This document shows, piece after piece, positions 24,901 to 27,567 of a stretch of 27,567 nt of DNA. Source of the stretch: a virus (taxonomy: Duplodnaviria; Heunggongvirae; Uroviricota; Caudoviricetes); IMG/VR virus record IMGVR_UViG_2695420708_000004; one strand, 5' to 3'. A program made the position numbers. Numbering within the stretch: the first letter of the stretch is position 1; every line of letters starts with the position of its first letter.

Positions 24901-27567
24901 AGGAAACTGGACGACTGCACAGTTTATCGAGTGGCTGGATTCTCAGGGAGCATTTAACCATCCATACTGGATGTGCAAGGGTTCCTGGTCTTATGGCAAT
25001 AATAAAATCATTACTGATACTGGCTGCGGTAATATTCATCTCGCCGGAGCTGTCATTGAAGTAATGGGGATAAAGTCAGCGATGACGATCCGCATTACCA
25101 CTCCGACCACATCCAGCGGTGGCGGAACAACCAACGCCCAGTTTACCTATATTAATCACGGAACAGATTATTCACCTGGCTGGCGAAGGGACTATAACTC
25201 CAGAAATAAGCCAACGGCATCAGAGATCGGGGCGCTACCGTCAGGTGGAACAGCAGTATCATCAGTTAATCTGGCTTCAAAAGGTCGGGTAGCCGCGCTG
25301 ACAGACAATACGCAGGGGGCAGCAGGTCTTGAGTTATACGAGGTGTATAACAACGGATATCCAACAGCGTATGGAAATATCATTCACCTGAAAGGGATGA
25401 CAGCCGTTGGCGAAGGTGAGTTACTCATCGGCTGGAGTGGTACAAGCGGTGCTCATGCTCCGGCATTTATTCGTTCACGACGGGATACGACCGACGCAAA
25501 CTGGTCGCCGTGGGCGCAGCTTTACACCTCGGCTCATCCTCCTGCAGAGTTTTATCCAGTCGGTGCACCAATCCCGTGGCCATCAGATACCGTTCCGTCT
25601 GGTTATGCCCTGATGCAGGGGCAGACTTTTGACAAATCTGCTTACCCGAAACTTGCAGCCGCTTATCCGTCAGGCGTGATCCCTGATATGCGTGGCTGGA
25701 CGATTAAGGGCAAGCCCGCCAGTGGTCGTGCCGTATTGTCTCAGGAACAGGATGGCATTAAATCGCACACCCACAGCGCCAGCGCATCCAGTACGGATTT
25801 GGGGACGAAAACCACATCGTCGTTTGATTACGGCACTAAATCCACGAATAACACCGGGGCGCATACGCACAGTCTGAGCGGCTCTACAAGTTCAGCTGGG
25901 GCCCACCAACATAGTCAGACTGGGCCCAGAACGAATAGCGGGAGTCAACCTACTGGAATGTTTCCGGCAGGGAGTACTCAAGTTAGCGGGACTAATCAGG
26001 TTGGTATCAGTGGCTCATTAACCAGTGGCACCTCCCAATGGGTAGGTAAATCATCTTCAGAAGGAAACCATACACACTCACTGTCCGGCACAGCAGCATC
26101 TGCGGGTGCACACGCGCATACTGTCGGTATTGGTGCTCATACGCACTCTGTTGCGATTGGTTCACATGGACACACCATCACCGTTAACGCTGCTGGTAAC
26201 GCGGAAAACACCGTCAAAAACATCGCATTTAACTATATTGTGAGGCTCGCATAATGGCATTCAGAATGAGTGAACAAGCACGGACCATAAAAATTTATAA
26301 CCTGCTGGCCGGAACTAATGAATTTATTGGTGAAGGTGACGCATATATTCCGCCTCATACAGGTCTGCCTGCAAACATCGTGGCATCTCGTTGAAGATCA
26401 TCGGGGTAAAACGGTTTATGACGTGGCTTCCGGCGACGCGTTATTTATTTCTGAACTCGGCTCATTACCGGAAAATGTCACCTGGTTATCCCCGGAAGGG
26501 GAGTTTCAGAAGTGGAACGGCACAGCCTGGGTGAAGGATACGGAAGCAGAAAAACTGTTCCGGATCCGGGAGGCGGAAGAAACAAAAAACAGCCTGATGC
26601 AGGTAGCCAGTGAGCATATAGCGCCGCTTCAGGATGCTGTGGATCTGGAGATCGCAACGGAGAAAGAAACCTTGTTGCTGGAAGCCTGGAAAAAGTATCG
26701 GGTGTTGCTGAACCGTGTTGATACATCAACTGCACCGGATATTGAATGGCCAGTAGCACCTATAGGGTAAATTCGTAATGATTACCTAAATACGTTATTC
26801 TTTTGTTAAAAAAGTGATTTTGCTATAGGTAGGGAGTATGTTCTTGGATTAAGAATAAAAAATCGCCATGAAAGAGCTTCATGGCGAGTACATAAACGTA
26901 CAAAATGTGATGAAAGTAGAGTGGCGTAAGCCACTATATTAAGATATGACAATAGCGAAGAAAAGTAAATAACATTTTATGGACGTTTAATTGTTAATTA
27001 TAAAAACTAGAGTGCCCGATATTGTTTATCTTGCTTTAAAATAATGTACTCAAACCAAATTTTTGAGCTAAAAGCTCAAATAATATAAATGCAATAATAA
27101 TGTTTAATAAGACAATTAGCTTGCTTTGTATTTTCATTTCGGAATACTGTTAAGTAACTTTGATGACCCTAACAATAGATCGGAATTTTCTTAGAGTCAA
27201 TGGTCACTGTTTTTGCTTGCAAAGCAAATGTTTTGGTGGTTATAAGTTGTCTTAATATAGTCACGCATGCAACTTGTTCCATGCGGAGATTAAAGATTGG
27301 AATATAACGCGAAGATGGAATTAAATTACATTTGCAATAATGAATTTATTATTACTCAATAATTACCGATATTATTATTGTAAATTAATCATTAGAGTGC
27401 AAAAAGAAATGTAACGGCAAAATAAGAGGACGATAGCTGAGAAAAAAGCGTGCTTTCCCAATCTGGGGCAAATCACGTCTGAATGACACCTGAAAACAGG
27501 TGGTAGCCTCAAGAAGGCTGGTGATGCTGCCAACTTACTGATTTAGTGTATGATGGTGTTTTTGAGG

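Follow-up and report, generated by a model that had tools for sequence, protein, structure and literature searches.

The stretch of DNA analysed here (the window, 27,567 nucleotides) is the entire draft contig CXAP01000051.1 (GCA_001260795.1), and the part compared was identical but for one position, 20273, which is N in the public contig and A in the window and marks a scaffold join between two separately assembled pieces (1-20272 and 20274-27567). The contig was retrieved through an exact match to the J protein of the window, and its length equals that of the window. The first 38 bp of the window (1-38, plus strand) are the last 38 bp of an IS2 right end, identical to the end of the E. coli K-12 IS2A. 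Towards the opposite edge lie a lom gene (22590-23072) and a tfa remnant, a plus-strand ORF of 150 aa at 26318-26770 that carries a 65-bp deletion at ∼26377 and is the last gene before IS1. The 749 bp from the tfa stop to IS1 (26771-27519) form the non-coding, AT-rich right arm of a lambdoid prophage, and the remaining 48 bp (27520-27567, plus strand) are exactly the first 48 bp of IS1.

The terminal 48 bases read GGTGATGCTGCCAACTTACTGATTTAGTGTATGATGGTGTTTTTGAGG and were identical to the start of the 768-bp IS1 in the S. sonnei-type locus L007, and also to that of the E. coli L001 copy annotated as 'IS1-like element IS1A family transposase, programmed frameshift'. A search for the left inverted repeat of IS1 (23 nt, GGTGATGCTGCCAACTTACTGAT) gave a single match in the window, on the plus strand at 27520-27542 and with no mismatches, and none in 100 shuffled sequences, whereas an IS1 right-end repeat was found nowhere in the window. 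Besides the left inverted repeat, the 48 bp comprise an untranslated leader with part of the IS1 promoter; they hold no coding sequence and stop 7 bp short of insA, which starts at IS1 position 56 in the L001 and L007 copies and would begin at window position 27575 (plus strand), in line with the IS1 architecture given in PMC12903888. The start coordinate of the element is likewise exact, as the two IS-free loci L002 and L003 matched the window through …CAAGAAGGCT and diverged at the very next base. The left junction is accordingly …CAAGAAGGCT|GGTGATGC…, with the 9 bp AAGAAGGCT (27511-27519) abutting the left end of IS1. The terminal 48 bp are thus confirmed as a genuine left end of an ordinary, known element, the visible part of which shows no difference from the IS1A/IS1R type of E. 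coli or from the IS1 copies of S. sonnei, 48 bp being too short for the assignment of an isoform.

A sequence-only reading of the window had taken these 48 bp for the left terminus of an IS1 extending rightward and had named the continuation into insA and insB as the point to be examined. In 16 of 16 junction-bearing loci inspected (6 of E. coli and 10 of the S. sonnei type) the sequence downstream of the junction did continue as IS1, with insA and insB' present, and the proposal was borne out in these relatives. The element measured 768 bp in 14 of these loci and 767 bp in the other 2, ended in …G(G/C)GAGTCATTACC, and showed the InsA zinc-ribbon, IS1 HTH and DDE_Tnp_IS1 domains, recognized either by Pfam (PF03811, PF12759 and PF03400) or by an annotation as 'programmed frameshift'. 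With a junction-spanning probe of 220 nt (≥80% coverage), at least 79 carriers were detected among 5,426 complete E. coli genomes, and the 10 S. sonnei-type loci fetched all carried the junction. This short probe was substituted for an earlier one, whose 280 genomes at ≥80% coverage do not measure the frequency of the junction, as the 953-bp flank is by itself enough to reach the threshold. The counts obtained with right-junction probes (101, 98, 128 and 9) are inflated, as nearby pieces were joined and other deletion classes score, and serve for finding examples and not for frequencies. An exact-pattern scan with the 41-nt junction gave no match among species-representative genomes, which with one genome per species is little informative.

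The portion of the window to the right of the scaffold join (20274-27567) was 99.986% identical to L007 (HE616528.1) and 99.96% identical to L018 (CP000038.1), which we take to be Shigella sonnei 53G and Ss046, respectively. At this level of identity the source of the window would appear to be Shigella sonnei or a very close relative. The window shares with both genomes the left junction downstream of tfa, the 65-bp deletion in tfa and a lom of 160 aa, so that its IS1 and theirs are almost certainly the same insertion; the copy is in this sense already known, the same copy being annotated in closed genomes. In HE616528.1 and CP000038.1 the IS1 is seen whole, whereas the window copy ends at 48 bp with its right junction out of sight. 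From these relatives, the copy in the window's genome is probably complete, and its right junction is predicted to read …AAGTTGGAGTCATTACC|AATTGGGTGGATGATATGG, 15 bp before the ATG of an AraC-family regulator gene, as in the S. sonnei type. The IS1 copy is probably old and inherited rather than the result of a fresh hop, and all carriers seen have the same left junction. An independent insertion into a hot spot in each lineage was also considered and was rejected as unparsimonious, since each event would have to choose the same nucleotide in the same orientation and bring a deletion with it.

That the element is cut after 48 bp is a property of the assembly. As the contig ends in IS2 on one side (1-38) and in IS1 on the other (27520-27567), the cut is an assembly break at multi-copy repeats, and contig breaks at multi-copy IS are expected in short-read assemblies of IS-rich genomes (bioRxiv 10.64898/2026.03.18.712784). 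The assembler would have stopped 48 bp into a full-length, IS1A-like element of 768 bp, IS1 being multi-copy. It could be argued that the 48 bp are instead an isolated fragment of an IS1 end or the product of a mis-join in assembly, with no complete element at the locus, since the terminus alone is visible in the window and the same scaffold has one demonstrable mis-join, at the N at position 20273. Closed E. coli and S. sonnei-type genomes show the identical junction followed by an IS1 of 767-768 bp, however, and short-read assemblers are expected to end contigs a few tens of bases inside a multi-copy IS (bioRxiv 10.64898/2026.03.18.712784), which makes a solo fragment or mis-join at this edge hardly credible. 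The case holds a lesson on draft contigs, in that both ends of the window are IS ends and a single N conceals a scaffold mis-join.

The organization of the site before IS1 arrived could be read from the IS-free loci L002, which lies in the bio/ybhB locus, and L003, which adjoins yodB. In the empty site, AAGAAGGCT is followed by 110 bp of very AT-rich DNA, by the 3' 62 nt of serU (tRNA-Ser CGA), beginning in the anticodon stem, and then by native serU-downstream DNA, as aligned with the serU-yodB region of K-12. In L003 the serU-downstream DNA runs into yodB as it does in K-12, which makes it a genuine right attachment site for a prophage that integrates at serU. In L002, ∼340 bp of serU-downstream DNA lead into a gene for an AraC-family regulator of 247 aa, IS3-type remnants and ybhB-bioA. 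The module formed by the serU fragment, the serU-downstream DNA, the regulator and the IS remnant was found at ≥80% coverage in 525 E. coli genomes including O157:H7, in which the match starts exactly at the serU core (L031). ARAGORN detected no complete tRNA in L001-L003, consistent with a partial serU, and an Rfam scan of the IS1 flank and of its IS-free version revealed no credible RNA family at the insertion point, tRNA-like matches being placed on the serU fragment. As a separate observation, the serU fragment with ∼340 bp of its native downstream DNA (L002, 5511-5950) accompanies the AraC module at loci far from serU, in the bio region and in an O157 OI-8-like region; such a travelling serU fragment could be a secondary attachment site for serU-specific phages.

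An AT-rich target had been suggested for this IS1, and the base composition agrees: the spacer between tfa and IS1 has a GC content of 31.6% vs 55.4% elsewhere in the window, and over 100 bp rightward from the empty site it is 24%. The further suggestion that the element had interrupted whatever lay downstream of tfa needs to be replaced, as IS1 entered non-coding DNA; the losses concern the right attachment arm, the att core and, progressively, the AraC regulator.

IS1 normally creates 9-bp target duplications and favours AT-rich DNA. The 9 bp AAGAAGGCT at 27511-27519 had been put forward as the candidate duplication, but they were absent after the right end of IS1 in all 16 junction-bearing loci, and the copy at this site thus differs from IS1 in general in having no target duplication in any relative examined. 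The 9 bp following the right end were CTTATTGGC in L001, CTGTAACGG in L004, AATTGGGTG in L006 and nine S. sonnei-type loci, CAAGATTAT in L024, GTTCTTGCC in L025, CTGACGTCG in L005 and ACGGTGCTG in L017. A probe consisting of the IS1 right end, AAGAAGGCT and the empty-site continuation TGGAATATT scored in none of the 5,426 complete E. coli genomes at ≥80% coverage. The comparison with relatives lacking the insertion, which the sequence-only reading had recommended, yielded the exact insertion point (from L002 and L003) but did not uphold the duplication model, since DNA is missing rightward of the element.

In order to define the missing DNA, deletion sizes were measured against the IS-free L002, all classes sharing an identical left junction. 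In L001, 550 bp are missing and the right end of IS1 lies 206 bp before the regulator ATG; in L004, 607 bp are missing and this distance is 149 bp; and in L006 together with nine S. sonnei-type loci, ∼741 bp are missing and only 15 bp separate IS1 from the ATG. A loss of 1,231 bp in L024 has its endpoint inside the AraC gene, and with 1,505 bp missing in L025 and 1,559 bp in L005 the regulator gene is gone. The left end and its flank are thus invariant, the right endpoints are six in number, IS1 is retained throughout and there is no duplication.

Could the element nevertheless have entered by simple insertion, with a 9-bp duplication of AAGAAGGCT and no loss of DNA? Such an event would be normal for IS1 in its duplication and its AT-rich preference, the site is indeed AT-rich, and for its own genome the window alone is compatible with it; the prediction is that AAGAAGGCTTGGAATATT follows directly after the IS1 right end in the window's genome. 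With the duplication in 0 of 16 junction-bearing loci, the order IS1, AAGAAGGCT, TGGAATATT in 0 of 5,426 genomes and about 741 bp missing from the closest relatives (99.96-99.99% identity), we regard this as very improbable. The lack of a duplication together with 550-1,559 bp missing to the right of the element means that it is not a simple insertion, and as a secondary deletion explains the missing duplication, its absence is no argument against the identity of the element as IS1.

We propose instead that the IS1 right end would have repeatedly deleted adjacent DNA, likeliest by transposase-mediated intramolecular transposition. In such an intramolecular 'adjacent deletion' the IS would stay in place and no target duplication would be left. 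The deletions would first take the att core, then stepwise the upstream region of the regulator and then its body, an order of events that the nested endpoints suggest. Classical adjacent deletions by IS elements share the same features, namely an IS that is kept, with one end fixed and the opposite endpoints variable, and the lack of a duplication; those of IS1 were reportedly described by Reif and Saedler in 1975 for the gal region of E. coli. The classical series were selected in the laboratory, whereas the series at this locus is pieced together from natural isolates and its dependence on transposase is presumed. IS-mediated adjacent deletions have also been described for IS903, IS10 and IS150, and missing IS duplications usually reflect either adjacent deletions or IS-IS recombination (PMC11708052).

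The second of these routes, also given by PMC11708052, is the main competitor: further IS1 copies would have inserted at each right endpoint and the intervening DNA would have been removed by homologous recombination. The AT-rich region could draw repeated IS1 insertions, and exchange between copies is suggested by the IS1 sequence variants at the site. Up to 6 positions vary among the copies. At position 757, which belongs to the right repeat, both G and C occur among members of a single deletion class, pointing to gene conversion between IS1 copies or to more than one history. Rearrangements at two loci can be cited in the same direction. In L017 (LR213458.1, 15763 onward) a fragment of a fimbrial usher gene flanks IS1 on the right. 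The IS1 of E. coli D1 (L023, 843-1610) abuts the regulator module 264 bp in, and the DNA to its left is that of the corA region. Recombination between IS1 copies, or inversion, is suggested in either case. To account for the whole series, however, recombination between copies needs six or more independent insertions in the same orientation within 1.6 kb. The searches run revealed no genome in which a pair of IS1 copies encloses any part of this interval, and variable endpoints opposite a fixed end are what one-ended deletions classically produce. We therefore consider recombination between IS1 copies rather unlikely as the general route, and transposase-mediated deletion is favoured over repeated second insertions with homologous recombination as, on the pattern of endpoints, reasonably probable. 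The explanation taken as a whole, that a full-length, old IS1 lies at the contig break and has anchored adjacent deletions, we hold to be very likely.

As seen through these genomes, the locus offers a natural example in which one IS1 with a fixed left junction has removed 0.55-1.56 kb in at least six ways across E. coli and Shigella. What the comparison adds is that the relatives speak against the duplication, and that a presumptive natural series of IS1-anchored deletions is recorded at the site. The deletions have erased the attachment site of the prophage and, progressively, a prophage-borne regulator of the acid-resistance type. In all deletion classes the serU-type core has gone together with what remained of the phage arm, so that Int and Xis should be unable to excise precisely from this end, and precise excision of the prophage is probably blocked by this loss of the att core.

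The AraC regulator (247 aa) gave its best scores against the YdeO and GadX models, both below their cut-offs. Its O157:H7 counterpart is located at ∼0.31 Mb, beside phage tail-fibre genes, and it is for this place that a prophage-encoded regulator of acid resistance, PatE (z0321, OI-8), has been described (PMC10877973); from the O157:H7 position, the regulator is presumably PatE-like. In the S. sonnei type, the gene is frameshifted after ∼137 codons and split into ORFs of 167 aa and 58 aa (L007, 11986-12728, and equivalents in L010-L019), and is therefore a pseudogene. Where L002 has ybhB-bioA beyond the regulator, the S. sonnei-type locus carries genes for an intS-like integrase, yfdC and mlaA. 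IS1 and the regulator have the same orientation and are 15 bp apart in the ∼741-bp class, and with so little space between them, any expression of the regulator would need read-through from IS1 or a hybrid promoter. Hybrid promoters of IS1 are documented (Prentki et al., 1986, as cited in PMC9330008). A more far-reaching interpretation is that the ever-deeper deletions reflect recurrent selection on the adjacent YdeO/PatE-like regulator, and not neutral decay, in a prophage grounded by the loss of its core. Were this true, an early step would strip the AT-rich, probably H-NS-silenced upstream region, place the regulator 15 bp behind IS1 and give read-through or hybrid-promoter expression, and later steps would inactivate the regulator; we consider such selection doubtful and offer it as speculation.

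The window had further been read as a prophage with intact structural genes and decaying accessory genes, the latter on account of broken lom and tfa. One part of this stands, as the frameshift in tfa and the 160-aa lom are real and common to complete genomes of S. sonnei. HE616528.1 and CP000038.1 both carry the 65-bp tfa deletion, but an intact tfa of 193 aa is present in other genomes of the S. sonnei type. The lom product encoded at 22590-23072 covers positions 1-159 of the 199-position Ail/Lom Pfam model and is thus truncated at the C-terminus, and since as many as 1,212 blocks of the genome collection list the exact 160-aa protein, this shortened form is widespread and old. The other part falls, as the first broken lom coincides with the scaffold join at the N at 20273. 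The ORF at 20159-22519 (786 aa) consists of Lom residues 1-39 followed by the last 750 residues of another J protein, the fusion point falling exactly at 20273. To the left of the N, the sequence matches a J-lom arrangement with a full-length lom in two other assemblies, and to the right it matches the S. sonnei-type prophage from mid-J onward. A join at the N with differing matches on each side identifies the lom-J fusion as a scaffolding artefact and not a real gene. An exact-sequence look-up of the chimeric lom'-J protein gave no match, because the public record has N where the window has A. The J-lom'-'J-lom layout probably arose when pieces of two prophages were joined in scaffolding, and the left 20.3 kb, which hold the supposedly intact structural genes, and the IS1-bearing right 7.3 kb may come from different prophages.

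Several further features were observed in and downstream of tfa. A full-length, strong match to Rfam IS009 (RF02111; 218.5 bits, E = 6e-55) was located on the plus strand at 26532-26730, wholly inside the tfa coding sequence. Immediately 5' of IS1, a module of ∼85 bp (27435-27519) contains the hairpins CACCTG-aaaa-CAGGTG and AGCCT-caaga-AGGCT. Other lambdoid prophages have copies of this module, 94-100% identical, at their right ends (L026, 2501-2586; L027, 2501-2585), where the copies follow NleG-like effector or diguanylate cyclase cargo and adjoin uspF/ompN or yodB, and the module is probably part of a shared attachment arm. Nearer to tfa, in the region ∼26850-26975 (corresponding to L002, 4731-4857), an intrinsic terminator is encoded on the minus strand, with a hairpin at 26863-26887 formed by TCGCCATGAAGCTCTTTCATGGCGA and followed by TTTTTATT. 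Upstream of this terminator, a weak MicC-like Rfam alignment was obtained, far below threshold (22.5 bits, E = 1.7), and the terminator region downstream of tfa could represent a small prophage-borne RNA.
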